NCBI GenBank assembly: GCA_038326365.1
Contig: JBBQJY010000001.1
Span: 12,128 to 76,127, forward strand
Direction of reading: 5' to 3'
From: Candidatus Curtissbacteria bacterium
GTDB lineage: Bacteria > Patescibacteriota > Microgenomatia > Curtissbacterales > GWA2-41-24
DNA: 64,000 bases
Both the position numbers and the translations under genes were made by a program. Shown here one piece after another: positions 2,710 through 18,586 of the stretch. Below the pieces are notes generated by a model that saw only the letters and a list, made by a program, of their open reading frames with translations, did not search any database and was not told the DNA's origin. Within the stretch, counting starts at the first letter, position 1; each line of letters begins with the position of its first letter.

Positions 2710-3780
2710 GTGCATTTGACTACCCAAAATCTGCTTAAATTCTCATTTCTTGTTTCAGCTCTTTTTCTACTGAGCACAAAGCTCACATTTGCAACAGTGC
2801 CTTCGGTTGTGACACCGACAACGATCGATGAAAATACCGACCACGCGACTGTCCAATTTAGCGGCCTTAGCCCCAACACTGATTACGAATACTGTGGCGC
2901 CGACTCGCCTTCAACCTGCAATGCTAGGAAAAAAACCATCAAATCCGATAGCTCAGGAACAGTAATCATAGACAATCTGTGCGCGGCCGGAGAACACCTG
3001 CTTGAGCCAAAAAGTGGAGGTTGCGACTCGGGCGACTTCTTTTGGGGAGACAGAACTTACGCAATTAAACTATACACATCTTGGCCAAATGAAATCGGCA
3101 ATGCGTCATTCAAAGTAAAACGGGTTATACCTAGTTTCGATATTACTTCAGATAACGGCTTCAAACCGGGCTCAGCTATAACTGCAAAAGTAAAAGGTAG
3201 CAGAAGGCCGATTGATAGCCCTGACAGAAACGCTTACTTGTTAGAAATTACTGGCAGTCCAAACCCTAGCAATAATTCACTTAAGATTTTTGAGCTGAAT
3301 AACTCAGAAGGAGATTACACTTTTAGCACCCTTTCCATAGCTAGCGGAGACTACACAATATCTTTAACCGGCCAAAATCATGGTTCGGAAGACGGCTTTG
3401 ATTTTGGGAAGATAGGCTTCAAAATAGATACTGCTGGCGGTGGGATAACCAGCGGCAGTGGCCCAACCTCTGGCAGCAACGCAGGCGTTGGTTCCAATCC
3501 CTGTGGCACCACTTGCCCCACAGCCCTAGGCGACCTGCCTCTCAATTTTCAAGAACTCGTCAATACCAAAATCTTACCAGCGGCTATCGGCATGGCCGGC
3601 GGTATTGCCCTAATTCTTATGGTCATTGGCTCAATCAGGATGCTTATGTCCCAAGGCGACCAACAAAAGTTAAACGGCGGTCGAGAAATGTTTGTTGCTG
3701 CTCTGGCGGGTTTGCTTTTCCTAATCTTTTCGACTCTCATTCTCAGGTTTATCGGCATTAATATTATCGGTATAAAATGA
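2710..3780 (+). CDS. T4SS pilin-like protein (VirB2/TrbC-like C-terminal two-TM hairpin) with a roughly 250-aa N-terminal secreted domain
   Basis: Signal peptide, then a C-terminus ILPAAIGMAGGIALILMVIGSIRMLMSQGDQQKLNGGREMFVAALAGLLFLIF that shares the TM-[ST]xGD-x-K-x(3)-AR-x-TM motif of the five downstream paralogs. Confidence 0.5.
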   Translation: MHLTTQNLLKFSFLVSALFLLSTKLTFATVPSVVTPTTIDENTDHATVQFSGLSPNTDYEYCGADSPSTCNARKKTIKSDSSGTVIIDNLCAAGEHLLEPKSGGCDSGDFFWGDRTYAIKLYTSWPNEIGNASFKVKRVIPSFDITSDNGFKPGSAITAKVKGSRRPIDSPDRNAYLLEITGSPNPSNNSLKIFELNNSEGDYTFSTLSIASGDYTISLTGQNHGSEDGFDFGKIGFKIDTAGGGITSGSGPTSGSNAGVGSNPCGTTCPTALGDLPLNFQELVNTKILPAAIGMAGGIALILMVIGSIRMLMSQGDQQKLNGGREMFVAALAGLLFLIFSTLILRFIGINIIGIK

Positions 3781-4457
3781 AAAAACTCTTTATTTTTTTA
3801 TTGGCTTTTGTAGCTTTCCTTCAATTTTCTAATGCGAACATCGCTCATGCCCAAACAGGCTGCCCTGCCCCAGGCTGGACTATCAGAATTCTCAACGCTT
3901 CAGGAAATGATGTAGATGTAGACTTTAGCGGCAAGCCAGCTGGCCACTTAAGCGTTGTGCATATCAGTGGATTTAAGGGTAATTATGACCTACCAATACC
4001 CGATGGCGCTCTCGATATTCATTTCCATGGGATAGATGACATTTACGCAGCAACTATGGTCTTTGCAGGCTGCAATATTTCGAATACTACTAGCTTTACC
4101 ATGCCTCCCGGTGGTGCTGGCCTACCCGGTGGTGGAGGCGGCAAGGCAACCCAATGCGGCTCGTTCGATGCATGTACATCAGGCGGTTTGGCCCCATCAG
4201 GTTTTTCAACCCAAAGCTTTATTACTCAACTCATCACCAAAATTCTTCCAATCGTCATCGGCGTTGGTGGATTCCTGGCAATCATTATGATACTTATTTC
4301 GGCAACACAATTTATAACCTCAAGCGGCAATCCAGAAGCGGCAGCAAGCGCCCGCGGCCGCCTCATTTTTGCAATTGTCGGCTTTGCACTCTTGATCTTG
4401 GCCTTTGCCATAACCAAAGTCATAGACCAAATATTTCTCAAAAGTGGAGCCATTTAA
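3777..4457 (+). CDS. T4SS pilin-like protein (VirB2/TrbC-like) with an N-terminal extracellular domain
   Basis: Signal peptide and C-terminus LISATQFITSSGNPEAAASARGRLIFAIVGFALLILAFAI. The start overlaps the upstream stop by 4 nt (ATGA). Confidence 0.5.
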   Translation: MKKLFIFLLAFVAFLQFSNANIAHAQTGCPAPGWTIRILNASGNDVDVDFSGKPAGHLSVVHISGFKGNYDLPIPDGALDIHFHGIDDIYAATMVFAGCNISNTTSFTMPPGGAGLPGGGGGKATQCGSFDACTSGGLAPSGFSTQSFITQLITKILPIVIGVGGFLAIIMILISATQFITSSGNPEAAASARGRLIFAIVGFALLILAFAITKVIDQIFLKSGAI

Positions 4458-4465
4458 GAAAGAAC

Positions 4466-4792
4466 ATGTACATTCCCCATCTTGACGCTTATGCCGATTT
4501 CGACCTTGCCAGCCAATTCTCTCCTGCCGGAATACCCGGCCTTACAAGTTTAGGCGCACTGGCAACAATCATCGTTAAATTCTTAATTTCCATAGTCGGA
4601 ATTCTAGCTATTATTTTTATAATTATCGCCGGCATAAAAATAGTCAGCTCCGGCGGAGACTCCAAAAAATTAGACGGTGCTCGCGCAACTCTTACCTATG
4701 CTATTATTGGACTAGTTGTGGCAATTCTTGCGTTTGTAATCGTCAATATTGTGCAGAAATTCCTAGGCTCGACTGTCGCCATAACCTCATGA
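4466..4792 (+). CDS. T4SS pilin-like protein (VirB2/TrbC family), about 109 aa
   Basis: The ATG at 4466 follows the upstream stop at 4455-4457. The motif is IIAGIKIVSSGGDSKKLDGARATLTYAIIGLVVAILAF. The long N-terminal extension in the 4154 ORF has no protein-like character and overlaps the upstream gene. Confidence 0.55.
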   Translation: MYIPHLDAYADFDLASQFSPAGIPGLTSLGALATIIVKFLISIVGILAIIFIIIAGIKIVSSGGDSKKLDGARATLTYAIIGLVVAILAFVIVNIVQKFLGSTVAITS

Positions 4793-5130
4793 GACTCGCA
4801 GCTGGTATAGGCACAATCACTGCCCCGCCCGAACTTGCAAAAGCTAATCCTGTGGACCCGCAAGCATATGTTGCCGGTTTTGTCAGGAACGGCATCAGCC
4901 TACTTTTAATTGTTGCTTTCATCCTTTCTTTTCTATTTACAATTATCGCCGGCATCAAGTTTGTAACCTCCGGAGGTGACGAAAAGGCTGTTTCTAGTGC
5001 CTGGTCTTCAATTTATTACGGCTTTATTGGGATGCTTATTGTAATCGGGTCATACGCTATTATAAGATTAATTGAGACCTTTTTTGGTGTTAGTATAATA
5101 TCAAGCGGTTTTCAACTGCCCACACCATAA
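4789..5130 (+). CDS. T4SS pilin-like protein (VirB2/TrbC family)
   Basis: Motif TIIAGIKFVTSGGDEKAVSSAWSSIYYGFIGMLIVIGSYAII. There is a 4-nt overlap with the upstream gene. Confidence 0.55.
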   Translation: MRLAAGIGTITAPPELAKANPVDPQAYVAGFVRNGISLLLIVAFILSFLFTIIAGIKFVTSGGDEKAVSSAWSSIYYGFIGMLIVIGSYAIIRLIETFFGVSIISSGFQLPTP

Positions 5131-5160
5131 AGTGCAAAAACAAAGGGGGTGAAACAAAAT

Positions 5161-5568
5161 ATGTTTGCGAAAATCAAAAAATTAGCCATACCATCAGTGG
5201 GTCTAGGTTTGCTACTATCAGCACCCGGATCCATCTTTGCGCAAGCAATTGGCGGAGGCGGAGCACTAGTTCCTACCGAAATTGCCCCAATTAATGACAT
5301 TGTCCAAGTAATTAGAAATGCTATCAGATTCATTTTGCTGATCGCTTTTGTCTTGGCATTTATATTCTTAATTATCGGCGGTATTCGCTGGATAACAGCT
5401 GGAGGAGACGAAAAAGCAGTCTCAAGCGCTCGCGGTATGATAACAGCAGCACTTATCGGATTAGTCGTAGTTCTAGTTTCATATGCACTCATCGTACTTG
5501 TCGAAACATTCTTTGGTGTCCATATTATCTCTGGCCCAATCACTATTCCGCAGGTTACTGATAAATAA
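5161..5568 (+). CDS. T4SS pilin-like protein (VirB2/TrbC family) with a signal peptide
   Basis: ATG at 5161 preceded by aaggggg. Signal peptide ends LLLSAPGSIFAQA, then LIIGGIRWITAGGDEKAVSSARGMITAALIGLVVVLVSYALIVL. Confidence 0.55.
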   Translation: MFAKIKKLAIPSVGLGLLLSAPGSIFAQAIGGGGALVPTEIAPINDIVQVIRNAIRFILLIAFVLAFIFLIIGGIRWITAGGDEKAVSSARGMITAALIGLVVVLVSYALIVLVETFFGVHIISGPITIPQVTDK

Positions 5569-5599
5569 AGCAGGGCTCATCACGGCTCAGTTAGCAGTT

Positions 5600-5911
5600 A
5601 TGCTAACTGCTCAAGCTATGGTCAGTCCTGCTTATGCGGCGCCACCAACTATCCACGACATCCAGACGATTTTTCAAAACATCATTGGGCTGCTCGCCCC
5701 TGCAACAGCGGTTGCCTTTTTAATAATGCTAATAGTTGGCGGCTTTAAATTTTTAACCTCCGGCGGTGACCCAAAAGCAGTAGGCAGTGCCCGCAGTACA
5801 ATGACTTACGCTATTCTCGGAGTTATCCTGGTTGTTGCCTCTTGGTTAATCCTAGTTCTTGTAAAAGAAATCACAGGCTACGACGTCACCACGTTCAAAT
5901 TGCCTTTCTAA
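5600..5911 (+). CDS. T4SS pilin-like protein (VirB2/TrbC family) with a signal peptide
   Basis: ATG at 5600 lies downstream of the previous stop at 5568. Signal-like MLTAQAMVSPAYAAPP, then LIVGGFKFLTSGGDPKAVGSARSTMTYAILGVILVVASWLIL. The 5483 start would overlap the upstream gene by 86 nt. Confidence 0.5.
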   Translation: MLTAQAMVSPAYAAPPTIHDIQTIFQNIIGLLAPATAVAFLIMLIVGGFKFLTSGGDPKAVGSARSTMTYAILGVILVVASWLILVLVKEITGYDVTTFKLPF

Positions 5912-5956: not shown

Positions 5957-8900
5957 ATGCCTGTCCACAAGGACGTACTGTCCAAAGCAAAAAGGCCCAA
6001 GTCAAAGCCATGGCTAGGTATCATATTCATCGCTTTGCTCATATCCATCAACCTCTCAATTTTTACCTCAGCAGTACAAGCCGCTCCTGGAGGCGCCCCT
6101 GCTCCCCAACCCTGTTTTAACCCTGAACCCGTCTACGTTAAAGACGCAGGCGGTAATTTTGTTCTCGACGCCAACGGCCAAAAAGTAGAAAACCTTACGG
6201 ACAACTATTTAACGGACACCAATGGTGACCCTCTCGGACCGGAAGAAACAGACAATAAACTTACTAATCCTGAAGCACTCAAGTTCACAATTGTCTATAC
6301 AGGTCATAAAGGAGATCTTGTTCACTTAACAAAAAGAAATCAAGTTAAAGTCGATTTTTCCAAGCTTCAGGCAATTTTTGGCGCCCCCAACTCTAACTTT
6401 GCAGATGGCGGCGCTCAAAGCATCGACCATGCCCAAACAAACTTAATGGGTCTTAAAAATCCTCTCATATACCAGGGCCCGGCACAAAAAGCAGTATTCA
6501 AAGTGCTGACCGATGCTCAACGCATAAAATACGTTAAATACGTTTATGACAAACCCGAACTTGGAGAATCTGGCACAAAGTTTACAGATTACAACGGCCA
6601 AGATCCTAAAAACATTCACGAATTAGTGGGTGCATTTTCCCTACCCAGCCCACCTCCAGCCGGCACCACAGACCAGCATTGGCTGGATACTTGGGCAAAG
6701 TATTGGGAAAAACTACCCACTACGTACAACGAATTTACAATTGGTAAATTGGAGTTTCGAGAGCTACATGGCCTCCAATTAATCGAAAACGTCAAGAAAG
6801 GAGTCGACAATTCCTGCAGCAAATTTAATCCACTAAGAACTGTCGAATTTCCCGTACCCAACTTTTTTCGGACAGCCGCAACTTCAGGCGCACTAAACCA
6901 AGTTCTTGTCCCCAAAACCGCCCAAAGCGACCAGAATGATCTCTTGGACATCAAAGGTGCAGTTCTCGGTGTTAAAACTTCTACCTTGGATTTTTTACAG
7001 TATTGCATCAAATTTGCCCAAAAAAACCCTGTCTCCCAGGCCATCAAAAAAGTTATTAGCTTAGGAACCCAATCTATCAAAAGTTCTTATATTGCTTATG
7101 CGGCTTGGAACCTCAATTTGGCCAGCGTTGGTTCAAATTCAGCCCGCTTCACTTTCGACCCACCAGGCAACGGCAATTTTGGACTTGTTGCCAAAAACAA
7201 TAGTACAGGTCAAACATGGGACAGTGGTGCAATCTCAAATGGTACGTCGAGTGTCACCTTTAATGGCCTCACCCCCGGCAATTATCGCGCTGTGCTTATA
7301 TTTGCTACCTCCGAAATAAGCAATGCAGTCACTTTCGATATCAACTCGGCCGATCCTTCTCCTCAGCCAACATCAAGCTGGACACTTAGCGTTCAAGCCT
7401 CTCCCATTAGGGGTTCAAACGTCCGGTTTGACTACAATCCTGAAGCCAATAGCGTCATGGCGCTCATCGTCTATGACCAAAACAACAACACCGTTACCGA
7501 TTCAGGCTCAATAGACCGCAGCACAACTTGGACTTGGACAAATGCCAGACCAGGTGTTTACCACGCCCAATTATTCGCTTACGGTATCGCACCTGTTTCC
7601 AATGTTGTCAATTTTGAAGTCCAATGGCTCTTAAATAACCCCACTGTCGACATTAGACCGCTGGCCGGAATAAACAACGTCAACTTCACTTTTGCCCCCC
7701 AGGGCAACAACGACGGCGCCAATCTCTCTCTTTTAACTTATGTCAATACAACTCCCCGAGGCACTGCCTTTTATGACAGCGCCGTCTCTGGCGTAAATCT
7801 AAATGGTCAAACCTCCCATGCATTGCCTCTTAACAAAGTTCGCTGGGGAAAATGGGTGGCGGTCCTCATTAAAGGCTTAAGTGCAGTTTCCAATGAAGTT
7901 ACTTACGAAGTTCCCTACGTTTTAGAAGTAGAAAACAACTCGGGCTCCGTAACATTCCATTACGGACCCCCACTCCATATTGGCCCTCCTTCGGCAAATG
8001 CCATGGCCATTATTGTCAAAAGAAAATATATCGACAAAGTCGTCTGGGACAGCGGACCCCTAGCTCTTGATTCAACCTCTGTCCACTGGACCGATAACGC
8101 CCAACCCGGAGACATGGAAGCTTGTCTTCTTTACGATGGCAAGACCGAGCTCAGCGCCCACAATTTAGTTTGCAAGCCCATCAGCGTTTCCACCAATTAC
8201 CCCTGGAAAATTATTACTCTGGACAAAGACAAATCTTGCATAAAGGTTTCCGGCTCCGGCAAAGCAGGCAACGCTCCATTCTGCGCCATCTACCCAACTA
8301 AATTTGAACCCTCCGTCAAAGGCCAAACAAACGTTTTCCCGGGCGAATGTGCCGACCCTAACCCTAGCCGCTATAAACTAAACGACCAATCCAATGTCGT
8401 TTGCACATTCACTTTCGACTGGGACTCTTCAAAATTCGACGGTATTCCGGACAAAGAACTGCGTCTTCCCGCTTCCGGCCCCGGCAATTGGGACAAATGC
8501 GATTATGCGGGTGATTTCGTCACTTGCTATTTAACTGTCGGAATCTGGCCCGATTTTAGGGTTCCATTCTTAGCACAATCTTGGAACAACACTCAATTTT
8601 CAAATAAAGATGAGGTCTTGCCCACCCTTCAAGAAACAGGCCGTCCCGGCTATTACACATTTGGTCAACCAAAAGCTGTGGCCGAATATGATCCGCTGCA
8701 AGAGCTGGTCAACAACTGTGACCCGGCAATTCCCGGTTCCCAAGCCTGCAAGGACTTGGTCAATAAAGTCACCAGTGGTGATTACCCAACCAAATATCCA
8801 GGTCTTAGCGATTGTGTAACCAGTTACCTTATGCAATTACCCCAATTAGTTACCTGCATTAAAGGTGTCGCCAGCCTTATCCCCAAAAACCTGCCAGGTC

Positions 8901-9577
8901 AAGTCGATTCATCAACGCTGGGTGCAAGCACCGGACCAAGTGGATCTGTCCTAGGCACGGCTACAGACCAAAAAGAGCGTTTTATTGGTGCTGTGGACTG
9001 TGGTAAACATCTCACCCGCGATATTTCTCTCAAGCCCCTAGTCCTGCAAAAAGAATTAGGAGTTAAATTTGATTGCGACCTGTCAACATCAAGCGAAACA
9101 CCTCCCAATGGAGCACCCCCTCCTCCACCAGGAGGCGGTACGCCGACGCCGACGCCACCACCTCCTCCACCAGGAGGCGGTACGCCGCCAACTACAAATG
9201 ATTGTTCAGGGAAATATAACCTAAGCACAAACCCGCTTAACGACAATTTCGGCGACCCTTCTTGTGATTTTTCCGAAAGCCAACTTTATGATCTTCTCAG
9301 ATCTCTTGATCCAAGCCGTGCAGACTATTGGTTCTTTACCATAGTCCCTTGCGAAAGTGTTTATAACTCAAACAATTACAACGGGGCTTCTACTAGTGGC
9401 TCAGCATGGGGTCTATATCAAATGGGTCACGAAGCCTATCCGACGCTTGGAATCCCACGACAAATGAACTCCCCTTTCGATCGCGGTGATGTCGATTGGC
9501 GTCTGCAAACCAGCAATGCCGTAAACTATAATAATGGCCTGGGTAATACCTTTGACTACTGGGGTTGCGCAACATGA
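5957..9577 (+). CDS. Large membrane-anchored surface protein with a C-terminal lytic transglycosylase (SLT/VirB1-like) domain after a proline-rich linker
   Basis: N-terminal TM segment, then a roughly 1000-aa extracellular region rich in Thr/Ser/Asn. The linker is PPNGAPPPPPGGGTPTPTPPPPPPGGGTPP. The C-terminus CESVYNSNNYNGASTSGSAWGLYQMGHEAY matches the SLT catalytic E-S ... GLMQ pattern. Confidence 0.65.
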   Translation: MPVHKDVLSKAKRPKSKPWLGIIFIALLISINLSIFTSAVQAAPGGAPAPQPCFNPEPVYVKDAGGNFVLDANGQKVENLTDNYLTDTNGDPLGPEETDNKLTNPEALKFTIVYTGHKGDLVHLTKRNQVKVDFSKLQAIFGAPNSNFADGGAQSIDHAQTNLMGLKNPLIYQGPAQKAVFKVLTDAQRIKYVKYVYDKPELGESGTKFTDYNGQDPKNIHELVGAFSLPSPPPAGTTDQHWLDTWAKYWEKLPTTYNEFTIGKLEFRELHGLQLIENVKKGVDNSCSKFNPLRTVEFPVPNFFRTAATSGALNQVLVPKTAQSDQNDLLDIKGAVLGVKTSTLDFLQYCIKFAQKNPVSQAIKKVISLGTQSIKSSYIAYAAWNLNLASVGSNSARFTFDPPGNGNFGLVAKNNSTGQTWDSGAISNGTSSVTFNGLTPGNYRAVLIFATSEISNAVTFDINSADPSPQPTSSWTLSVQASPIRGSNVRFDYNPEANSVMALIVYDQNNNTVTDSGSIDRSTTWTWTNARPGVYHAQLFAYGIAPVSNVVNFEVQWLLNNPTVDIRPLAGINNVNFTFAPQGNNDGANLSLLTYVNTTPRGTAFYDSAVSGVNLNGQTSHALPLNKVRWGKWVAVLIKGLSAVSNEVTYEVPYVLEVENNSGSVTFHYGPPLHIGPPSANAMAIIVKRKYIDKVVWDSGPLALDSTSVHWTDNAQPGDMEACLLYDGKTELSAHNLVCKPISVSTNYPWKIITLDKDKSCIKVSGSGKAGNAPFCAIYPTKFEPSVKGQTNVFPGECADPNPSRYKLNDQSNVVCTFTFDWDSSKFDGIPDKELRLPASGPGNWDKCDYAGDFVTCYLTVGIWPDFRVPFLAQSWNNTQFSNKDEVLPTLQETGRPGYYTFGQPKAVAEYDPLQELVNNCDPAIPGSQACKDLVNKVTSGDYPTKYPGLSDCVTSYLMQLPQLVTCIKGVASLIPKNLPGQVDSSTLGASTGPSGSVLGTATDQKERFIGAVDCGKHLTRDISLKPLVLQKELGVKFDCDLSTSSETPPNGAPPPPPGGGTPTPTPPPPPPGGGTPPTTNDCSGKYNLSTNPLNDNFGDPSCDFSESQLYDLLRSLDPSRADYWFFTIVPCESVYNSNNYNGASTSGSAWGLYQMGHEAYPTLGIPRQMNSPFDRGDVDWRLQTSNAVNYNNGLGNTFDYWGCAT
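9119..9187 (+). repeat. Perfect 27-nt direct repeat (cctcctccaccaggaggcggtacgccg) occurring twice with a 15-nt spacer, encoding a PPPGGGTP linker repeat
   Basis: The two identical copies at 9119-9145 and 9161-9187 are read directly from the sequence. Confidence 0.8.
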
Positions 9578-10068
9578 ACCTGCCGCAAAATCAAAAAACA
9601 TTTCAAGTAATAATAATCGCCGTTGTCTTTTTCCTACTGGCCATGATTTTCGGCATTTTCCTAACCCAGACCGGCAAGAGCACAAAACCCGCAGCCACCA
9701 ATAAAATTGTGCCCCCTCAAGTTTCACCCGCATCTTTGCCAAAAGAAACAAAAGACCTCAAAAGCAAACTGATTTCAAAGCCTCTTAAAAATAACAAAGG
9801 CGATTTACTGCTTTATGAATCAACCAATTTTTATGTTGAATACATCACTTCTCCCCAAGTCTTTTTCGTCAAAATTGCAAAGGACGTCAACAACTCCAAA
9901 AAGCAGGCGACAGAATGGTTCATCGCACAAGGCGCAACCGGCCAAGATATGTGCAATCTGCCTGTTCGATTCATTCTATCTACTCTGGAAGCCCGCCAAG
10001 AAGACCCAAAATTTACAAGCCTGCCGGATGGCTGCACAGGACAACCGATTTCAAAACCCACTAAATAG
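9565..10068 (+). CDS. Hypothetical membrane-anchored protein (single N-terminal TM)
   Basis: N-terminal hydrophobic helix VIIIAVVFFLLAMIFGIFL. It overlaps the stop of the upstream gene. I recognise no domain. Confidence 0.45.
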   Translation: MRNMNLPQNQKTFQVIIIAVVFFLLAMIFGIFLTQTGKSTKPAATNKIVPPQVSPASLPKETKDLKSKLISKPLKNNKGDLLLYESTNFYVEYITSPQVFFVKIAKDVNNSKKQATEWFIAQGATGQDMCNLPVRFILSTLEARQEDPKFTSLPDGCTGQPISKPTK

Positions 10069-10096: not shown

Positions 10097-10795
10097 TTGC
10101 ATTCACGATCGTCTATGAGCTCTCCAGACAGGAGAATCGCCATTTACGGAGCGCTTTCAGCTCCCTTTATCGCTTTCAGCGCTGCCTGCGGAGTAGATAA
10201 TCCAAAACCTCAAATCACACACCCCACCCCAATTTCTGGTGATGTCCAAGGCGCACTATTAAATCCAACTGAAGGTGCACTTCTATATAAATCACAGACT
10301 CCTCGCCCAACGTTATCAAGCTCAACACGTGAATCATTTGATCCAAACCCAAATACTACTGCGACTTCGTCACAATTAAACTGCGTTAACCCAAATTCAC
10401 CCACATTCGATTCAAATCCTGTCTCTTTTGCTGAACCCGATGCAACTGGCATCATTAAACTTACCGATGGCTCCCCGATAAACGTCAATACAAGCATTGA
10501 TAATCTCATAAACCCTGACGAAGCCGGACAATACGTGATAGATTTATGGAAGCAAAGAGTTGGAGAACCAACAAGCAGTGTCTTCTTTAAAAAAATTAAA
10601 GAGATTAAAAAGTTTAAAGAAAACAATCCAAACGATAAAAGAGTTATTAATCTAGTGAACGAGGCAGTCTGCATCGTCCACTATAACCAGGAGCCTATTA
10701 CGGGTAATTTTATGACCATCCTAAGGTCGTATGTTTATGCGATAGATCCGAACTATTTAGGTAACAATTACACCTTTTACAGTTGGAAGCATTAA
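10097..10795 (+). CDS. Hypothetical secreted protein, possibly a lipoprotein
   Basis: Signal-like N-terminus ending IAFSAACGV and a low-complexity region rich in Pro/Thr/Ser. I recognise no domain. Confidence 0.45.
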   Translation: MHSRSSMSSPDRRIAIYGALSAPFIAFSAACGVDNPKPQITHPTPISGDVQGALLNPTEGALLYKSQTPRPTLSSSTRESFDPNPNTTATSSQLNCVNPNSPTFDSNPVSFAEPDATGIIKLTDGSPINVNTSIDNLINPDEAGQYVIDLWKQRVGEPTSSVFFKKIKEIKKFKENNPNDKRVINLVNEAVCIVHYNQEPITGNFMTILRSYVYAIDPNYLGNNYTFYSWKH

Positions 10796-11021: not shown

Positions 11022-12164
11022 ATGCTTGACAAGCTAGTTGCAAATCCACCGCCAAACATCTCTGAGGGCCAGTTTCGCTTTGATCCATCTCATCCCCCTC
11101 TGGCGAGTAAACAAATTGCTGAAGAACTAATTGATCCAATCCCCGAAGCAATGCTTGCCTACAATGTTCGATTCGATATTAAAGCTTACTGCAATTTGCT
11201 AGACCAAAAATCAACTCACACACACGAAGAATTCATAGCTAAGTTTAATTCCCTCAACGCTTTAACCAGAACAAATATCGAAACTTCAATTGCCGAAAGA
11301 TTCAACGCCGAAATACATCGAGCTTCATACAAACTCAAAGACGGCCAGCTAATCCATGAATCCTACGAGCAACCCTTTTTGGAAATAATCAGACGCGGTC
11401 AAGAATTTAGAGAAAAGTCTGGTTCCCAAGAGATCGATCGCGAAAGAGCCGAACTTGCCGGATTTAAAAAAGTCCAGGAGACACTCGCCAGTGAAAAGCT
11501 ATCAAATGACGCAAAAGTAATTGTCATCTCACCCGTCGGCGGCATTTACGGGCACAATTTCTACGATCTTTACCAAAGAACCGAAGATGGCAAAATTAAT
11601 ATGTCTCGTTACAGCTCAAAGAATTCCTATCAAAAATTTCTAGCAGCCGCTCGGCAAATAGACCCATTTTGTGAACTTCCCGATAATCCATCCGATGCTG
11701 ATTTCTTGGCTCGTCCACTCATAACTTATTTGCCGCCTGAACAAATTCAAACCCTCATGGATCCAGATGAAAAAACAATGAGCCAGGAAGAACTTGAAAA
11801 AATAAAAATAGCTTGGGCTCCAGCAATCGGAGGCTACATAGTAGATTTACTAAAAAATCCAAACACAATAACTCAAGAAAATTATTTAGATATCCTGAGA
11901 TTTGCCCAAGCGGCCAAAAACGGCCAAACTATTTCTGCCAAAGATATTCGCCAAATTTTCTTACCTAGAATAACAACAGCTTGCGGCATATCCGGTTCTC
12001 CCTATTCGGTTGCTGATTTCATAACCAACCCTAACCTCATCCAGGATAGGTATGGATCACTCCAAATCCATTGCCAGGAATGCAACACTAGTTATCCGCG
12101 AAATTTCGGTAAACTCGAAGAAAATTGTCGATACTGCGGCGGCACCAAGGGAATCGTTTGCTAA
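11022..12164 (+). CDS. Hypothetical cytoplasmic protein with a C-terminal CxxC...CxxC zinc-ribbon
   Basis: The ATG at 11022 is preceded by aaggagg at 11008-11014. The C-terminus is CQECNTSYPRNFGKLEENCRYCGG. Confidence 0.5.
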   Translation: MLDKLVANPPPNISEGQFRFDPSHPPLASKQIAEELIDPIPEAMLAYNVRFDIKAYCNLLDQKSTHTHEEFIAKFNSLNALTRTNIETSIAERFNAEIHRASYKLKDGQLIHESYEQPFLEIIRRGQEFREKSGSQEIDRERAELAGFKKVQETLASEKLSNDAKVIVISPVGGIYGHNFYDLYQRTEDGKINMSRYSSKNSYQKFLAAARQIDPFCELPDNPSDADFLARPLITYLPPEQIQTLMDPDEKTMSQEELEKIKIAWAPAIGGYIVDLLKNPNTITQENYLDILRFAQAAKNGQTISAKDIRQIFLPRITTACGISGSPYSVADFITNPNLIQDRYGSLQIHCQECNTSYPRNFGKLEENCRYCGGTKGIVC

Positions 12165-12217
12165 ACCTGCCTTGACTATCGCCTAAATTGTCCCTAATAT
12201 TGATTTAGAGTTTGTCC

Positions 12218-13993
12218 ATGCTTTCTGCCACAAAAATAAAACTGTTGGTTGTTTTACCATTTCTACTTCTTGGCCTCTTTTTTCAACCCAAAATTGCATC
12301 TGCTCAAAGTTACGGTTGGACAATATCGGTTGCTAATGTTTCTGGTACTTCAATTACCTATAATATTACGCCAAACTCCGGTAGCGGATCGGTACTTGTA
12401 TTAACAGACCTTCCATTGGGCGATCCCAACAGAGAATGTACTATTCCACCAAACGTATCCTCATTCACCTGCACTCACCCCGCGGGGACTCATTCGGTCG
12501 AAGTTACATATCTTGGCACTAAACAATCAGCAAACATCTCAGTAACAACTGGAGGAAGTGGTGGTGGTGGAGGAGGAGGAGGTGGAGGTGGAGGTGGACT
12601 CGCTAGCTGTGCTGCTCCGAATCCCGACACAACATCCCGCCAAGCACATGACCTCGTCCTTAAATGCGGTATAGCCAACGGCAGCATGGATAACCTTTAT
12701 TTCACCTTCAGTGAAACAGCCGGCATTCTGGACAGTCTTCAAGTCCTGGTCATGGGCAGTTCTCAACTTCACGAAGAATCAAACAAAGTCACCCAAAACA
12801 CTGGTGCTCTTGCAGGAGCCGCAACACTTGTTGCATCACTCTATAGCCACCCTCCGGCGTCTGGGGTTGAATATTTAGCCGGTGAATTCCAAAAGTTTAA
12901 CCCAACAAAAGACGCTTATGCCCAAACAGGAATCGGCTACGACACACTTCAACCTGTTCAAACCATTTGGGAACTTTTCAGAAACATTTCCTACCTCGGC
13001 TTCGTTATCGTTTTTGTTGTCATTGGTTTTATGATTATGTTCCGAGCACACATATCCCCCCAAGCAGTAGCTACGGTTCAAGATTCATTACCCAGGATCG
13101 TTATCGCACTTGTTCTCGTTACATTCAGTTACGCCATCGCCGGCTTAATGATCGATCTCATGTTCTTGTTTCTGAACGTCATTCTGGGTCTTCTGCCAGT
13201 AACTGACGCATCAAACATTGTCTTCAAAAAAAGTGTTTTCGGCGTCATAACTAGCTCTTGGAAAGACACTTTTGGAACTGTTTTTCATAATGTTCAAGAT
13301 CTTCTCAGTGAGATCATCAAGACTAAATTCTTTGTGGATAAAATTCTTGCCTTCTTCGGGGGCGGTATTGCAGCCCTCGTCGTCGGTATTGCCATGTTTT
13401 TCATAATGTTTAAGGTTTTCCTAATGCTATTAACTGCTTACGTTTCCATTATCCTCTTAACAATCGCAGCTCCATTCTTCTTCCTCTTGCAAGCTTTACC
13501 CGGTAACAACAATGGCATGACTTGGTTTAAACAAATGCTAGCAAATGTGGCCGTTTTCCCAACGGTTGCCATCATGTTCATTCTGGCTGGCTATCTCGGT
13601 GGCATTACGGCACTTGGTGGTAACGACAGTAACCCAGCAATCGGCCAGTCGAGCGGTAACATTGCAAAATTCCCTTTGCTTGCAGGCGATCTGGACCCTA
13701 AAGTTTTGGGGCATCTGGCAGGTATTGGCATTCTACTCATGACGCCAGCCGCGGCTCAACTCGTTAAGGACGCACTCGGTGTCAAGGCTGTAGGGGGCGG
13801 CGCAGCAGGCGCAGCAGCAGCTGGGGCTCTAGGCGCAGGCGCAGCAGTTGCGGGAGCTCCATTTAGGCCAATTCAAGGTGGCTTTGGCAAGGCTACGTCG
13901 GACTATGCTTCAAAAGGACTCTCAACAACAGGCAGGGCAGGGTTTAATAAAGTCAAAGGGGTATTAGGAAGAGGTCCCGGAGGTGATACCTAA
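12218..13993 (+). CDS. Polytopic membrane protein, candidate VirB6/TrbL-like T4SS channel component, with an N-terminal secreted domain, a polyglycine linker and a Gly/Ala-rich tail
   Basis: Signal peptide MLSATKIKLLVVLPFLLLGLFFQPKIASAQS, a GGSGGGGGGGGGGGGGG linker, then at least five hydrophobic helices. It sits next to the pilin, hydrolase and VirB4 genes. I did not recognise a VirB6 signature directly, so this call is by context and topology. Confidence 0.4.
   Translation: MLSATKIKLLVVLPFLLLGLFFQPKIASAQSYGWTISVANVSGTSITYNITPNSGSGSVLVLTDLPLGDPNRECTIPPNVSSFTCTHPAGTHSVEVTYLGTKQSANISVTTGGSGGGGGGGGGGGGGLASCAAPNPDTTSRQAHDLVLKCGIANGSMDNLYFTFSETAGILDSLQVLVMGSSQLHEESNKVTQNTGALAGAATLVASLYSHPPASGVEYLAGEFQKFNPTKDAYAQTGIGYDTLQPVQTIWELFRNISYLGFVIVFVVIGFMIMFRAHISPQAVATVQDSLPRIVIALVLVTFSYAIAGLMIDLMFLFLNVILGLLPVTDASNIVFKKSVFGVITSSWKDTFGTVFHNVQDLLSEIIKTKFFVDKILAFFGGGIAALVVGIAMFFIMFKVFLMLLTAYVSIILLTIAAPFFFLLQALPGNNNGMTWFKQMLANVAVFPTVAIMFILAGYLGGITALGGNDSNPAIGQSSGNIAKFPLLAGDLDPKVLGHLAGIGILLMTPAAAQLVKDALGVKAVGGGAAGAAAAGALGAGAAVAGAPFRPIQGGFGKATSDYASKGLSTTGRAGFNKVKGVLGRGPGGDT
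12553..12600 (+). repeat. Simple (GGN)n repeat encoding a 16-residue polyglycine run
   Basis: ggaggaagtggtggtggtggaggaggaggaggtggaggtggaggtgga, read directly. Confidence 0.75.
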
Positions 13994-13994
13994 T

Positions 13995-16900
13995 TTACCT
14001 GGCAAATACATATTTCAATCCTTGTCGGAAAAACTCAGAACCCCCAAATAATGGCCCTTGCCACCAAATTCTCTTTGCACTTTCAGAAACACCCATTCGC
14101 GCATAAATATCGGCATACTCAGCCAAAAACCTAGCATTTCTAACAGGCAAAATACCGGGCAAGCCTCCCCAGCCCAGATATTCGCGCTTCATCCAGTCTT
14201 TATACTTCACATTTAATCGATTACTTCGAACGGCAAGGTCGATAATTGTCTCCGTATCCGCATGAGGCATATTGTCTACTTCCCCCCACCAAGATTTCCA
14301 ATAAGTACCCAGCCTCTGATGCATCGGTATCACCAGCTTCATCATCGGCTGCAGTCTAACTTCTCGCTTAGAATAAAAATTCTCCAAAGAGAATAACTGT
14401 AAAAACTCCGCATTGTTTGGCTGCTGCAAATAGTGTTGCAGCTTTGGCTTTTCAGGACTCATGAAATTCATCATGGCAGCCCTGTCACCATAAAGATCAA
14501 TCCATCTATATTTCCAGCTATTATCAACTCTAAAAAAATGACTCCACTTACAGTTATCAAACTTAACTTCACCCTGATCCAGGGCTTCTGCGAGGATTGC
14601 CGACTTTGCCCAACCCATTTCTTCCTTATTACCTTTATCGAATTTTTTGATGTTCTTAAAACTATTTGTTTTTCTTTTGATAACTTCTTTTGCCGTTTCA
14701 TTCAATAGCCCGTCAGAATTAATACCTTGTTCCTCGTCCAAAAGGTCGCTGGCAAATCGAACCAGAGTTCGGTTTTGCGGCAACAAGTTTCCATTTTCCC
14801 CAAGCATCTCGTCTTGCATGACATAGTTTGCCTTTTCTACCTTACCGCGAGATTCGTCTATAAAAAATTCCCAGGCGTGGTCAACCATTCTTCCATAGAA
14901 AAAGTCTGTAGATTGGTTGTACACATATCCAGATACTCTCCCCTTGCCACCAGCCGGATTATCTATATTTGGATCCCAAACCCTGATGCCGTCATAATCA
15001 CTCCAAGCCATAACCCAAGCAAGCCTATGAGCATTGTTTACAACCTGGTCGACCAAACCCGTGTCCACCATTTCGATTATTTGTTTATCGCTAAGATTCC
15101 ATTTTTCTTTGTTCTTAACCAGCTCCTCAATCAGTCCACCCCCCGTTGCTACAAGCTCGACGTTTCCATTTGCTTGCTCGACTTTATATTCCCGCTTATT
15201 CCCTACCATCTCACTCTTCCTTAGCCCAACAGCCTCCGCTTGCTCTTTAATTAACCCAAGCATAGTGTTCTCCCTATACCATTTACCTATAGCTTTTTTC
15301 ATATTATCAACACTATAATCATCACCAAGTTCACCTTGTATGGACTCGAGCGCAGCTCTTTCTTCGTCGGTTTTGCCTTTAATTTTCCTGTCTTTCGTCC
15401 AGCTCTCCACAAAGTTCATAAGTAGACGCTCTTTATGGAATCTACCCATGTAAATATTCATTCCGGCGTCCAGCAAATTTACAGAAAGATGCTTCCCTTG
15501 AACATCTTTATTAAATCTTTCAAAATAAACCTCGAAAGTATTGTCCTTAAGGCCCTGAACTACTTTGGAAACAGTCTCAGGATTCATGCTTGCATGCTCC
15601 ATCGTGCTATAGAACTGGTTAATTGCAATAACTGACTCGTACTTTTCCGTCAGTTGCTTCCTGAGCTCAATAGCCCTTTCTTTTTCCTCACCCTCAAGCG
15701 AATCAACAGGTATTCTCAAAACCACCTGTACTGCTCTTTGAATTTTTTGTGATAATTGCTGTTCACCAAAATCAGAGCTTTCAAGAAGCCTCAAAATCCC
15801 GTCTACTGTTTTTTCGCTTTCTTTCCAATCATTTGGCGGCAATTCCGAAGAAATATCCGAAAATCTCAAGTCAAATCCCTGACGATAAACTTGCGCCTTC
15901 CATTTCAATAACTCCGCAAAATCGGGATTTGCATCGACTTCCGTCTCAACAGTTTCGTCAAATATTTCCCGGTAGTCATCGGCTCTACCATAGATACCCC
16001 CCTCTTGTATGGAGTTGACTTGAGAAGCTGAATCTTTTATTCTCCTAAAAAGTGCAGCCAATTGCTCTGGCTTGCTCCTCTTCTCGAGTTCTCGGAATTT
16101 ACTATCTACATGAGCCCTTGCCTCTTCAACAATTTTCTCATCGTCGTCGGACACAATAGACTGAAAAAGATTCAGTTTTTCAGACCCGAGTAATGTGTAT
16201 TTTGATTTAAGTTCGTTAATAGCTAGCGACATTTGTGACAATATGTCATAATTCTTAGGATTTTCGGGGTCTGCAAGAATCATACGAGCTTCTTCGATTT
16301 GGCCTCGATATTCTGTCAATAGTATTCCGTATTGATCGCGCATGCTGGTTTCTCCATTTTCTGTATCCACTCCCTTTTCTTTCAGATACAACAGTCGCTT
16401 AACGACCTCTTCAAGATTTACATGAACTGGAACACGTCTCTTTTCAATCCTACCTTCGTTATTTGGTACCCTCTTGACTACATACATTTCTAAAGGTTCG
16501 TCCCAGTAAATTTCACCGTTTCCCCCACGAATGGCTGGTAGGTTTTTCCCTATCTCGGTGCTTTTAGGCTTGCCCGTCCAGCCAGTCAGCTCAACTGCTC
16601 CATGCTCGGCAGCCCATTTCCAGCGCCTAACGACAGCCCAATTTTTCCACTTATCTTTAGGTACAGTAATTTCGAATCCCCGACCGCGAAAAAAAGCCTC
16701 AGCTGCCGCAGGATCGTCTATATATTCTCCGCGCTTCGTGGTTTCGATTATGATCCTAGGTAGAGCATCGGCGTAAACCAAAATAGCCCCCTCTTCTTTT
16801 GCCAGTGCTTCCATTTTTTCTTCTGTTACTACCTTTAGCTTCTTTCTGATTTCATCTGCCTTCAGAGCAGACTCGCCACGGTGTTTGCGCAAGGATTCTG

Positions 16901-17213
16901 CTATTACCTCTTCAGAGTTCATGCCCACAATCTTAGATTGATCTGCTCCGCTCTCAATAAGCGCAGTTCTCAAACTACTTAAGCTTTCACTGGAAACAGC
17001 TACTTGGTTTGAAGTGTCAAAAGCCTCACTCAATTTCTCAGTGTGTTCTCGGGCATTAAATTGTTTGTTTGGTTTCTTTTTAGCACCTCCGTCACCAGGT
17101 TCAGCTCCTTTGTTTTCGTCTGGAGTCCGCAAGCTTCCATCAGGCATAGTATTTCCCCCTTTATACTCAGCGTACAAGCTGGAGGGGTCAAATGCAATAA
17201 AATCTTCTTTCAT
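13995..17213 (-). CDS. Large (1072 aa) soluble protein of unknown function, rich in charged and Trp residues, inside the T4SS-like locus
   Basis: The ORF is uninterrupted with no TM segments, no Walker motifs and no recognisable catalytic motifs. It is divergent from the ATPase-winged-helix regulator gene. Confidence 0.55.
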   Translation of the reverse strand: MKEDFIAFDPSSLYAEYKGGNTMPDGSLRTPDENKGAEPGDGGAKKKPNKQFNAREHTEKLSEAFDTSNQVAVSSESLSSLRTALIESGADQSKIVGMNSEEVIAESLRKHRGESALKADEIRKKLKVVTEEKMEALAKEEGAILVYADALPRIIIETTKRGEYIDDPAAAEAFFRGRGFEITVPKDKWKNWAVVRRWKWAAEHGAVELTGWTGKPKSTEIGKNLPAIRGGNGEIYWDEPLEMYVVKRVPNNEGRIEKRRVPVHVNLEEVVKRLLYLKEKGVDTENGETSMRDQYGILLTEYRGQIEEARMILADPENPKNYDILSQMSLAINELKSKYTLLGSEKLNLFQSIVSDDDEKIVEEARAHVDSKFRELEKRSKPEQLAALFRRIKDSASQVNSIQEGGIYGRADDYREIFDETVETEVDANPDFAELLKWKAQVYRQGFDLRFSDISSELPPNDWKESEKTVDGILRLLESSDFGEQQLSQKIQRAVQVVLRIPVDSLEGEEKERAIELRKQLTEKYESVIAINQFYSTMEHASMNPETVSKVVQGLKDNTFEVYFERFNKDVQGKHLSVNLLDAGMNIYMGRFHKERLLMNFVESWTKDRKIKGKTDEERAALESIQGELGDDYSVDNMKKAIGKWYRENTMLGLIKEQAEAVGLRKSEMVGNKREYKVEQANGNVELVATGGGLIEELVKNKEKWNLSDKQIIEMVDTGLVDQVVNNAHRLAWVMAWSDYDGIRVWDPNIDNPAGGKGRVSGYVYNQSTDFFYGRMVDHAWEFFIDESRGKVEKANYVMQDEMLGENGNLLPQNRTLVRFASDLLDEEQGINSDGLLNETAKEVIKRKTNSFKNIKKFDKGNKEEMGWAKSAILAEALDQGEVKFDNCKWSHFFRVDNSWKYRWIDLYGDRAAMMNFMSPEKPKLQHYLQQPNNAEFLQLFSLENFYSKREVRLQPMMKLVIPMHQRLGTYWKSWWGEVDNMPHADTETIIDLAVRSNRLNVKYKDWMKREYLGWGGLPGILPVRNARFLAEYADIYARMGVSESAKRIWWQGPLFGGSEFFRQGLKYVFAR

Positions 17214-17308: not shown

Positions 17309-18586
17309 ATGGGAACATTTGAATTACAATTTCCAGGAAATTTTCGCCAGGCAGAAATCGACAAGATTTTGACCTTTGTACAAACCGGCAAATTTTGCCA
17401 ATTAATTTCTACCCCTGGAAGCGGAAAAGCGACTCTTCTGAGGCTGTTGGCCTACAATCCCAATGTTTTAAAATTTCATTTGAAAGAAAAGGGAGCTTCT
17501 ATTAATTTCATTTATCTAAATCTTTTAGACCTTGAAAACTACCAAGAGATTGAAATTCTCAAATACATCCTGCTTGCTCTGAACCAAAAAGCGCAAAGCG
17601 ATGACCTTCTGGCACTAAACAAACAATTAATGGAAATTGTTCACCAGCAAGCAAGCCTTGGCCAAACTACAGTTTTTCTCTTTGACCATTTTGACGAGTA
17701 TCAGAATCAGTTACCTCCGTCGTTTTTTCAGCTTCTAAGGAGTGCGAATAGACAAGCAAGATACAAATTTTCCACCGTCTTTGCAACCAGAAGAGATCTA
17801 GCAGAGTTAGTTGACCCAACAACGATCAAAGATTTTTATGATTTTTTTACTGACAACGCTATTTATATGAAGATCTATGACCCATCCGCCATAGAATTTA
17901 TGGTCTCGCAAATTGAGGCTATATTTAAAAAGAAGATCCCCATAGCGGACAAAGCAAGCATTATTCACCAAACGGGAGGCCATACTAAACTAACGAAGAT
18001 AGTGACAGAAATGCTTATACGCCAAAATCTGTCTCTAGATAATCAGCTGCTTACGAAACCAACAATTTCTTCTACCCTCCAAGAGCTGTGGCTTTTCTTA
18101 ACAGCCCAAGAACAGCAGACCCTCTATCAAATTGCCAATGACGAATACAAAAATCAGCCAGACGAAACAAATAAACTAGAAGCCTTTGGTCTTGTCAAAC
18201 GAAACCAAACACCAGCTAAGGGTTTTGAATTAACCATCCCTTTATTTAAAGAATACATAAAGAACACTATCCCTCAGCTCACCCCAGAAAAGATTACATA
18301 TAACGAGCAAACCAGAGAGATAACCAAAGGTGCAAAAATAATCTCTGATTTGCTTTCGCCTCAAGAAAACCGCTTGCTCAAGTTTTTAATCGAAAATCAA
18401 AACAAGGTTATTCAAAGAGACGAAATCATCAAAGCCGTTTGGCTAGACTCTCAAAATGCCCAAGGCATCTCCGACGAGGCAATTGATCAAATGATTTTTA
18501 GGCTCAGAAAAAAAATTGAAGATGATCCCAACCAACCAGAACGACTGTCAACCGTAAAAGGTCAAGGTTTTCGCTTCAAAGCTTAA
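17309..18586 (+). CDS. Putative transcriptional regulator: N-terminal P-loop NTPase domain fused to a C-terminal OmpR/PhoB-type winged-helix DNA-binding domain
   Basis: Deviant Walker A ISTPGSGKATLL and Walker-B-like TTVFLFDHFDE. The C-terminus QENRLLKFLIENQNKVIQRDEIIKAVWLDS...IDQMIFRLRKKIEDDPNQPERLSTVKGQGFRF is a textbook OmpR-family trans_reg_C fold. Confidence 0.6.
   Translation: MGTFELQFPGNFRQAEIDKILTFVQTGKFCQLISTPGSGKATLLRLLAYNPNVLKFHLKEKGASINFIYLNLLDLENYQEIEILKYILLALNQKAQSDDLLALNKQLMEIVHQQASLGQTTVFLFDHFDEYQNQLPPSFFQLLRSANRQARYKFSTVFATRRDLAELVDPTTIKDFYDFFTDNAIYMKIYDPSAIEFMVSQIEAIFKKKIPIADKASIIHQTGGHTKLTKIVTEMLIRQNLSLDNQLLTKPTISSTLQELWLFLTAQEQQTLYQIANDEYKNQPDETNKLEAFGLVKRNQTPAKGFELTIPLFKEYIKNTIPQLTPEKITYNEQTREITKGAKIISDLLSPQENRLLKFLIENQNKVIQRDEIIKAVWLDSQNAQGISDEAIDQMIFRLRKKIEDDPNQPERLSTVKGQGFRFKA

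Follow-up and report, generated by a model that had tools for sequence, protein, structure and literature searches.

A large surface protein gene in a type IV secretion locus

The stretch of DNA analysed here (the window) comprises 64,000 nucleotides of a contig from a Candidatus Curtissbacteria bacterium (Microgenomatia, Patescibacteria; JBBQJY010000001.1), and our subject is a large gene on its + strand (positions 5957–9577), together with the small gene that follows it (9574–10068, + strand). A first-pass annotation had described the large gene as encoding a 1206-amino-acid (aa) surface protein that may form part of a secretion apparatus; we confirmed the open reading frame (ORF) on the + strand and found that it lies inside a type IV secretion system (T4SS) locus, directly after an array of VirB2-like pilin genes. 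The C-terminal part of the protein is predicted to be a lysozyme-like module that varies among orthologues in concert with the small downstream gene, and we consider below whether the two could make up an exchangeable wall-degrading payload and its cognate partner.

Comparison with homologues indicates that the large protein belongs to a Curtissbacteria-type family whose members are built from a signal or anchor sequence, an N-domain, Ig-like repeats, a Cys-rich domain, a Pro-rich linker and a C-terminal module. The leader (5957–6082, + strand, as are all parts of this gene), recognized from a hydropathy scan and from the sequence itself, consists of a Lys-rich N-terminus and one hydrophobic stretch (aa 17–41) ending in VQA/AP, and could be either a Sec signal peptide or a signal anchor. 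What had been described as a long extracellular domain rich in Thr and Asn resolves into three parts, namely the conserved N-domain (aa 43–386; 6083–7114), four Ig/FN3-like repeats detected by self-alignment (aa 387–472, 473–555, 556–652 and 653–744; 7115–8188), and a conserved Cys-rich domain identified by homologue comparison (aa 745–1050; 8189–9106), which contains 11 Cys residues and ends in the conserved motif RDIxLKPxxLQxxLGxxxxCxL. The first and last of these parts define the family and were always found together in the homologues that we compared. The Ig-like repeats, which match Invasin_D3, fn3 and Y_Y_Y weakly and correspond at the DNA level to repeat families D3/D4, are an insert present only in 'long-form' orthologues; most orthologues lack them, and in these short forms the N-domain is joined straight to the Cys-rich domain. 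Direct searches of the window protein and its segments with the Pfam and NCBIfam hidden Markov models (HMMs) gave nothing useful, and searches of Pfam and the PDB with the Cys-rich domain found no relative.

Upstream of the large gene are six ORFs that resemble VirB2/T4SS pilins (2710–3780, 3777–4457, 4154–4792, 4789–5130, 5149–5568 and 5483–5911, together spanning 2710–5911 on the + strand), recognized with the Pfam T4SS_pilin/TrbC models and a local pilin HMM; ORF 5149–5568 helped to build the local HMM, and its sole independent support is a weak NCBIfam pilin-like match. In every orthologous locus with upstream DNA, four to seven (mostly six) pilin-like genes directly precede the orthologue, and the core formed by the N-domain and the Cys-rich domain was found, wherever upstream DNA exists, only directly after such an array and never elsewhere in our scans. 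Within 15 kb of the large gene are genes for a VirB4-like ATPase (18591–20420, – strand), a TrsD-like protein (20430–21527, – strand) and a PrgI/VirB3-like protein (21527–23101). Two further genes of the locus specify likely wall-active enzymes: divergent from the pilin array is a gene for a 550-aa SpoIID-domain protein with a long N-terminal coiled coil (932–2584, – strand), which is kept at the same position in all four loci with called genes (L001–L004), and adjoining the VirB3/VirB4 genes is a gene for an 855-aa polytopic membrane protein with about seven transmembrane (TM) segments, a glycine zipper and a C-terminal Peptidase_M23 domain (23364–25931, + strand), after which come dnaN and dnaA. 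The order SpoIID, pilins, large gene and, further on, VirB4 is kept in four distant genomes. The locus fits the MPF_FATA-like, origin-proximal T4SS described for Patescibacteria (PMC12102498).

A divergent lysozyme-like module at the C-terminus

The last ~126 aa of the protein (aa 1081–1206; 9197–9574), which contain four Cys residues and which we refer to as the type-A module, are predicted to form a divergent lysozyme-superfamily domain with SLT-like catalytic motifs. In particular, the module contains Cys1132-Glu1133-Ser1134 (9350–9358), with Glu1133 (codon 9353–9355) positioned 74 aa from the C-terminus, followed by S-A-W-G-L-Y-Q-M at aa 1149–1156 (GLYQM at aa 1152–1156), an arrangement that resembles the E-S…G-A-x-G-L-x-Q pattern of SLT domains. 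Glu1133, the predicted catalytic acid, aligns with Glu35 in C-type lysozymes as well as with the E-S Glu of SLT domains. The Glu at this position is invariant in 32 of 32 sampled relatives of the module and in 66 of 66 other carriers, and the Ala, Gly, Gln and Met of the module motif are, like the Glu, invariant in the 32. The catalytic Glu that the first-pass annotation had placed in a CES motif is thus present and aligned in all relatives examined.

The same annotation had called the domain a VirB1-like lytic transglycosylase, and here only part of the claim stands. Neither the window protein nor its last 135 aa matched any Pfam model at E ≤ 10, SLT included; an NCBIfam search of the protein gave no match; and a phmmer search of the PDB with the C-terminal domain returned only noise. 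We nevertheless place the module in the lysozyme superfamily because its relatives and the family profile, rather than the window's own sequence, give matches. Thus, the corresponding domains of two orthologues (P0007 and P0009) scored 18.2 and 19.6 bits on Pfam SLT (PF01464), below the curated gathering threshold of 21.3 bits, and also matched Phage_lysozyme2 and C-type lysozyme; 19 of the 32 sampled relatives reached Pfam SLT at E ≤ 1, the best at 6.7e-5, and the best value among the 66 other carriers was 1.4e-5, these two best matches being estimated at about 23–25 bits. According to an exhaustive profile search, the type-A modules make up a discrete family with ~500 clusters (50% identity), of which 456 lie below 1e-10; weaker matches do not trail off from it in a continuum, and it has no Pfam model of its own. 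The module is always located at the extreme C-terminus (a median of 0 residues follow it).

When the family profile was compared with the PDB we obtained 156 matches at E ≤ 10 (best E = 0.0058), and all 60 that were listed are C-type lysozymes; in these alignments the module Glu lies opposite Glu35 and an invariant Ala lies opposite Asp52/53. Alignment of the profile with single sequences by hhalign (Slt70, EmtA, MltC, hen egg-white lysozyme and human lysozyme) gave probabilities of 5–63% and P values of 7e-5 to 7e-3, and in each case covered only the E-S…G-L-x-Q core. In an AF2 model of the module, a helix over residues 44–55 ends at the catalytic-position Glu. A Foldseek search of the PDB with a first model of the C-terminal region (pLDDT 64, built from 12 sequences) gave no match. 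Close to the C-terminus, the module contains V-N-Y-N-N-G (aa 1189–1194), and profile alignments put the helix of this segment opposite the C-terminal helix of lysozyme rather than opposite the AYNxG motif.

These comparisons also bring out how the module differs from its nearest known counterparts. It shares with the family 1 lytic transglycosylases (Pfam SLT, PF01464; Slt70, MltC, EmtA/MltE and the T4SS/T3SS-specialized VirB1 and EtgA) an E-S followed by a G-A-x-G-L-M-Q-type motif, aligned in Slt70, EmtA and MltC; however, the window copy falls below the SLT threshold, measures only ~105 aa between the Glu helix and its end and is thereby shorter, shows no clear third motif of the AYNxG kind, ends in W-x-Y-W-x-C-A, and carries an N-terminal C-x-G-x-Y…NFGDP-x-C extension and four Cys residues. 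Relative to the C-type lysozymes (GH22; insect, hen and human lysozyme, and α-lactalbumin), the module keeps the Glu but has the invariant Ala in place of Asp52/53, the E-values are marginal, and the module family is bacterial and always fused at a C-terminus. The alignments show no second carboxylate at the position of lysozyme Asp52, a pattern known from lytic transglycosylases. The module may act as a transglycosylase or as a muramidase, and it is not demonstrably a member of the SLT or VirB1 families.

The module is found well beyond the protein described here. Of 66 unrelated proteins that end in a type-A module, 35 contain DUF11 repeats and one has a subtilase domain, and the module is a general C-terminal appendage of Patescibacteria surface proteins.

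Orthologues carry alternative modules or none

We compared the C-termini of 42 non-redundant orthologues (<95% core identity) that were complete at the 3′ end. Beyond the conserved …LKPxxLQ…CxL motif and the Pro-rich linker, which in the window occupies aa 1051–1080 (9107–9196), the sequences diverge into distinct tails. The lysozyme-like type A of the window is present in 17 orthologues, and in one more that has a masked gap; type C (six orthologues) and type B (five) have no Pfam or PDB relative; type D (three) shows an E-S…G-I-F-Q signature with an SLT match at E = 0.15; and type E occurs once. The remaining nine orthologues have no tail at all, the protein stopping right after the Cys-rich domain. 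Core identity was uncorrelated with module type (r = 0.04). The large protein had been put forward as the peptidoglycan-opening component of the secretion apparatus, and an obligatory role of this kind is unlikely given that nine of 42 orthologues lack a module and that the others carry at least four unrelated types; nor would the protein be the only candidate for that task, for the locus also encodes the SpoIID-domain protein (in all four loci with called genes) and the M23 protein (in the window).

One type-B orthologue (L024, 7746–10634) has an extra C-terminal extension of ~200 aa with a metallopeptidase-like HELAH (HExxH) motif and a weak DUF6782 match, so that its tail would, as read from the sequence, be two modules. 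A protein with a C-terminal M23 domain (P0012) was first taken to represent a fifth module type; we rejected it as a family member because it shares only the Ig-like repeats, is without the N- and Cys-rich domains, and lies outside any pilin locus.

A downstream partner gene co-varies with the module

The start of the gene that follows (9574–10068) overlaps the stop codon of the large gene in the sequence ATGA. It encodes a 164-aa protein that we call the partner, composed of an N-terminal TM segment, a Pro-rich stalk and a domain of ~110 aa with a conserved Cys pair, the latter being conserved in all type A and type D partners. A partner is present in 30 of 31 loci with modules A–D, whereas partners of clusters P1 or P2 are present in none of the nine module-less loci. 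Partner cluster P1 goes with modules A, B and D, with subtype differences, and P2 with all modules of type C. Partner ectodomains are ~40% identical within a module type and ~17% identical between types, a difference that is seen whatever the level of core identity; partner identity correlates with module type at 0.88 and with core identity at 0.07. The partial Mantel r between partner and module type was 0.881, a value that none of 5000 permutations reached. Moreover, the nearest neighbour of a partner shares its module type in 30 of 31 loci, the corresponding figure for the nearest core neighbour being 16 of 31.

The pairing extends to proteins that have nothing else in common with the large protein. 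In three unrelated carriers, namely a stand-alone 210-aa protein encoded beside dnaN/dnaA, a Levybacteria protein and a protein on a third contig, the type-A module is followed by a homologue of the type-A partner (E = 3.5e-26, 1.3e-23 and 1.6e-17), and at one of these loci another partner-like gene lies in tandem. We had considered the downstream gene as a constant structural component of the locus, and we rejected this idea because the partner co-varies with the module and is absent from module-less loci. Because the pairing recurs in unrelated proteins, we conclude from these comparisons that the partner belongs to the module rather than to the T4SS core, and that the two are exchanged together at the linker.

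Two observations concern the neighbourhoods of particular loci. On a Levybacteria contig (L095, 672–2891), the type-A module gene is succeeded in turn by its type-A partner, a second, shorter partner-like gene and a gene for a protein with Peptidase_C39_2 and Amidase_2 domains, which may together represent a small island of wall enzymes and partners. In two loci (L069 and L080), a module-less orthologue is followed, after 42 and 18 nt, respectively, by a gene for a different TM protein of 226–254 aa (cluster P6), conceivably a further type of partner.

A possible exchangeable muralytic payload

The large gene and its neighbour combine a conserved core, a sharp junction beyond which alternative C-termini are found, and a translationally coupled downstream gene that co-varies with the C-terminus, and this triple pattern is the genetic hallmark of polymorphic effector–immunity systems. 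For this reason the interpretation that we favour, with a probability of roughly 0.45, is that the module is an exchangeable muralytic payload that is used on the wall of another cell and is encoded with a cognate partner that probably serves self-protection. Our comparisons show how the protein is built, in which locus its gene lies, to which superfamily the module belongs, that its Glu is invariant, that the C-terminus is polymorphic and that module and partner co-vary; the enzymatic activity and the target of the module, the association of the core with the pilus, and the topology and inhibitory role of the partner are inferred. The core, comprising the N-domain and the Cys-rich domain, is the locus-specific part and would attach the protein, on the cell surface, to the pilus or the secretion apparatus; the Pro-rich linker joins the core to the exchangeable module. 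The type-A module should cleave the glycan strands of peptidoglycan using Glu1133, and, displayed or released at the site of the T4SS or pilus, would be aimed mainly at the wall of a host or competitor. The partner, in the manner of an immunity protein, would neutralize or restrain the module at the producer's own membrane. Module and partner form a two-gene cassette, which passes between orthologues in one piece and is found alone elsewhere. An attack on the host envelope has been proposed for surface lytic transglycosylases (PMC11665869), and the cassette-like way in which module and partner co-vary lends indirect support to the suggestion in the first-pass annotation that the protein could act against another cell. 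The more specific proposal, that a polymorphic peptidoglycan-degrading effector and a membrane-anchored immunity protein are attached to a conserved component of the T4SS-pilus locus in Curtissbacteria-type Patescibacteria, we advance more tentatively. Two results weaken both the payload interpretation and its closest competitor: the partner has no relative in Pfam, the PDB or NCBIfam, and the positive-inside rule is indecisive as to its topology.

That closest competitor is a VirB1-like housekeeping function, in which the large protein is an N-terminally anchored wall-opener of the T4SS that locally cuts the producer's own peptidoglycan for assembly of the pilus or channel, and the partner is a VirB8-like scaffold or regulator by which the enzyme is positioned or held back. 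We regard this as a real, if somewhat doubtful, possibility. The large gene lies inside a T4SS locus and its module is lysozyme/SLT-like with a catalytic Glu; VirB1 homologues of Gram-positive bacteria are large, membrane-anchored and modular (SLT, CHAP, MUR and LytM domains) and interact with bitopic VirB8 homologues (PMC12857230); and standard VirB1 and VirB8 profiles rarely match near virB4 in Patescibacteria, such that divergent substitutes are to be expected (PMC12102498). However, the module is not a constant component across orthologous loci, and the module-less orthologues are without the partner as well. Furthermore, neither the core nor the remainder of the locus goes along when module and partner are exchanged, unusual behaviour for a housekeeping assembly factor; the pair is also found apart from the core protein; and the SpoIID and M23 proteins provide the locus with other wall enzymes. 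Indeed, the polytopic M23 protein, a second wall-active enzyme of the locus as predicted from its domain, is itself a candidate for the real VirB1-like function.

It is unlikely that the large protein is mainly a pilus-associated or surface adhesin whose module attaches to glycan strands in a target wall but leaves them uncut, as has been suggested for inactive VirB1 homologues of certain Gram-positive conjugation systems. Surface adhesins typically have Ig-like repeats and a Pro-rich stalk, Patescibacteria T4SS loci have yielded no PrgB-type adhesin (PMC12102498), VirB1 homologues with an adhesin role have precedent (PMC12857230), and some orthologues do without a module; nonetheless, the invariance of the Glu and its surrounding motif in all 32 and 66 relatives argues for retained catalysis, and it is difficult to see why a domain with a binding role alone would have a dedicated partner that co-varies with it. 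Least probable, and indeed very improbable, is an autolysin for general wall remodelling during growth or division, with the T4SS genes as chance neighbours and the partner as its membrane regulator. Although the type-A module and partner do occur in other contexts and on other proteins, many with DUF11 repeats, the core was found only directly after a pilin array wherever upstream DNA is available, and nowhere else in our scans; moreover, one would not expect close relatives to replace a housekeeping hydrolase with module types unrelated to it.

Comparison with known systems

The protein described here resembles the Gram-positive VirB1-like hydrolases PrgK of pCF10, TraG of pIP501 and Orf14 of Tn916, which are also large, combine a membrane segment at the N-terminus with extracellular muralytic domains that differ from one system to the next, and are encoded in MPF_FATA-type T4SS loci (PMC12102498, PMC12857230). 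Unlike in those proteins, to which we found no sequence relationship outside the lysozyme-like core, a single C-terminal module is located behind a lineage-specific core that is able to exist without it; and the coupling to a co-varying partner gene was not found described in the VirB1 literature that we consulted. The likeness to polymorphic toxin and effector–immunity systems such as CdiA-CT/CdiI, Rhs and LXG lies in the conserved N-terminus, the alternative C-termini past a junction and the co-varying small downstream gene; further comparators are the wall-degrading effectors with periplasmic immunity proteins, such as Tse1/Tsi1 and Tse3/Tsi3 of the T6SS and X-Tfe/X-Tfi of the Xanthomonas T4SS. 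Relative to those systems, the leader here is of the Sec type and not a known T4SS, T6SS or T7SS targeting signal, a fifth of orthologues are without the C-terminal module, the window contains no array of orphan modules or partners, and toxicity and immunity are predictions.

The T4SSs of Patescibacteria are related to the MPF_FATA class (PMC12102498, PMC12857230), and their clusters mostly lack relaxases and a recognized VirB1 (PMC12102498). The same study describes pilin arrays as abundant in Microgenomatia; near virB4 it finds few homologues of VirB1 or VirB8, and it finds no adhesins (PMC12102498). The function of the Patescibacteria systems has been described as completely unknown, although the one species in which this was tested needs its T4SS to live (PMC11665869, PMC12102498). 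T4SS-associated wall hydrolases and polymorphic effector–immunity cassettes are already known; it is their combination, and the families involved, that are new, and our search of the literature found no description of the protein family, of the C-terminal domain family or of the module–partner cassette in Patescibacteria T4SS loci. From the analysis emerges a lysozyme-like domain family (~500 clusters) that had not been annotated before and that has a partner family of its own, and the locus offers a concrete handle on T4SS function in the form of a locus-specific surface protein whose tail and partner behave genetically like a conflict cassette. If the more specific proposal of an attached effector and immunity protein is correct, this would be, to judge by the literature that we searched, the first effector–immunity cassette associated with a Patescibacteria (monoderm-type) T4SS, with the apparatus carrying an exchangeable wall-cutting payload for host or rival cells, and would give the first concrete clue to the job of an essential but unexplained machine. 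Glu1133-dependent muralytic activity together with cognate neutralization would connect the pilin array with an assault on the wall of a neighbouring cell or with passage through it; both predictions are testable in E. coli without culturing the organism. Should the VirB1-like alternative hold instead, the gap left by the 'missing VirB1/VirB8' of these systems would be filled.

Other genes of the secretion locus

Several further genes lie between the partner gene and the VirB4-like gene. Directly after the partner gene is a gene for a 232-aa protein with a lipoprotein-like N-terminus (…FSAAC/GVDN; 10097–10795, + strand), longer homologues of which follow in L001 and L002. The gene at 12212–13993 (+ strand) encodes a possible VirB6-like channel subunit, a 593-aa protein with a signal-like N-terminus, about seven TM segments and no Pfam match; in the three other loci with called genes, this position is taken by a gene of comparable size (592–707 aa). 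An N-terminal segment of the 593-aa protein (SYGWTISVANVSGTSITYNITP…) resembles the Ig-like repeats of the large protein. On the – strand, 13995–17213 encodes a 1072-aa predicted cytoplasmic protein with no family match, whose size (1068–1147 aa) and position are kept in all four loci with called genes and which is a candidate for an unrecognized T4SS component, for example a coupling-protein substitute. A gene for a protein with AAA_22 and OmpR-type winged-helix (Trans_reg_C) domains lies inside the locus at 17309–18586 (+ strand); L001 and L002 also have such a gene, whereas L003 and L004 lack it at this position.

The TrsD-like ORF upstream of the VirB4-like gene encodes 365 aa with a weak TrsD/TraD match, and it also weakly matches the N-terminal part of the mycoplasma VirB4 model, which suggests that VirB4 is split, with its N-domain and ATPase encoded by separate genes. 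Within the pilin array, long N-terminal extensions mark the first one or two pilins (356 and 226 aa). ORFs 3777–4457 and 4154–4792 overlap by ~300 nt in different frames, and the true start of the third pilin is therefore probably internal to ORF 4154–4792. Promoter and terminator scans revealed nothing beyond chance.

A duplicated unit in the linker

The first-pass annotation had also noted a perfect 27-nt tandem repeat in the segment that encodes the linker. The two copies (9119–9145 and 9161–9187, within 9119–9187 on the + strand) are indeed identical and encode PPPPGGGTP twice; they are not arranged head to tail, however, but are separated by a 15-nt spacer, giving a period of 42 nt (14 codons, in frame) with ~1.8 copies and an extended 32-nt match at 31/32 identity. 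This is the only exact direct repeat of at least 20 nt with a spacing of no more than 100 nt in the whole window, and none of 100 shuffles yielded two matches. Tandem Repeats Finder did not call the 27-nt/42-nt repeat. The duplicated unit is found in none of the homologues, whose Pro-rich linkers differ in sequence and length, and a search of public metagenome contigs with the unit found no other contig that carries it. Slippage is plausible at direct repeats in general, and, since the 42-nt period is in frame, gain or loss of one unit would only lengthen or shorten the linker by 14 aa. The duplication sits at the junction where modules are exchanged, a position that we note without explanation. 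In the closest species-representative genome (L009, ~11300–11900), the linker of the orthologue contains a run of Ns (masked sequence or a gap), after which the translation reads as a TW repeat and the type-A module resumes in another frame, and the linker region of this genome appears to be hard to assemble or repetitive.

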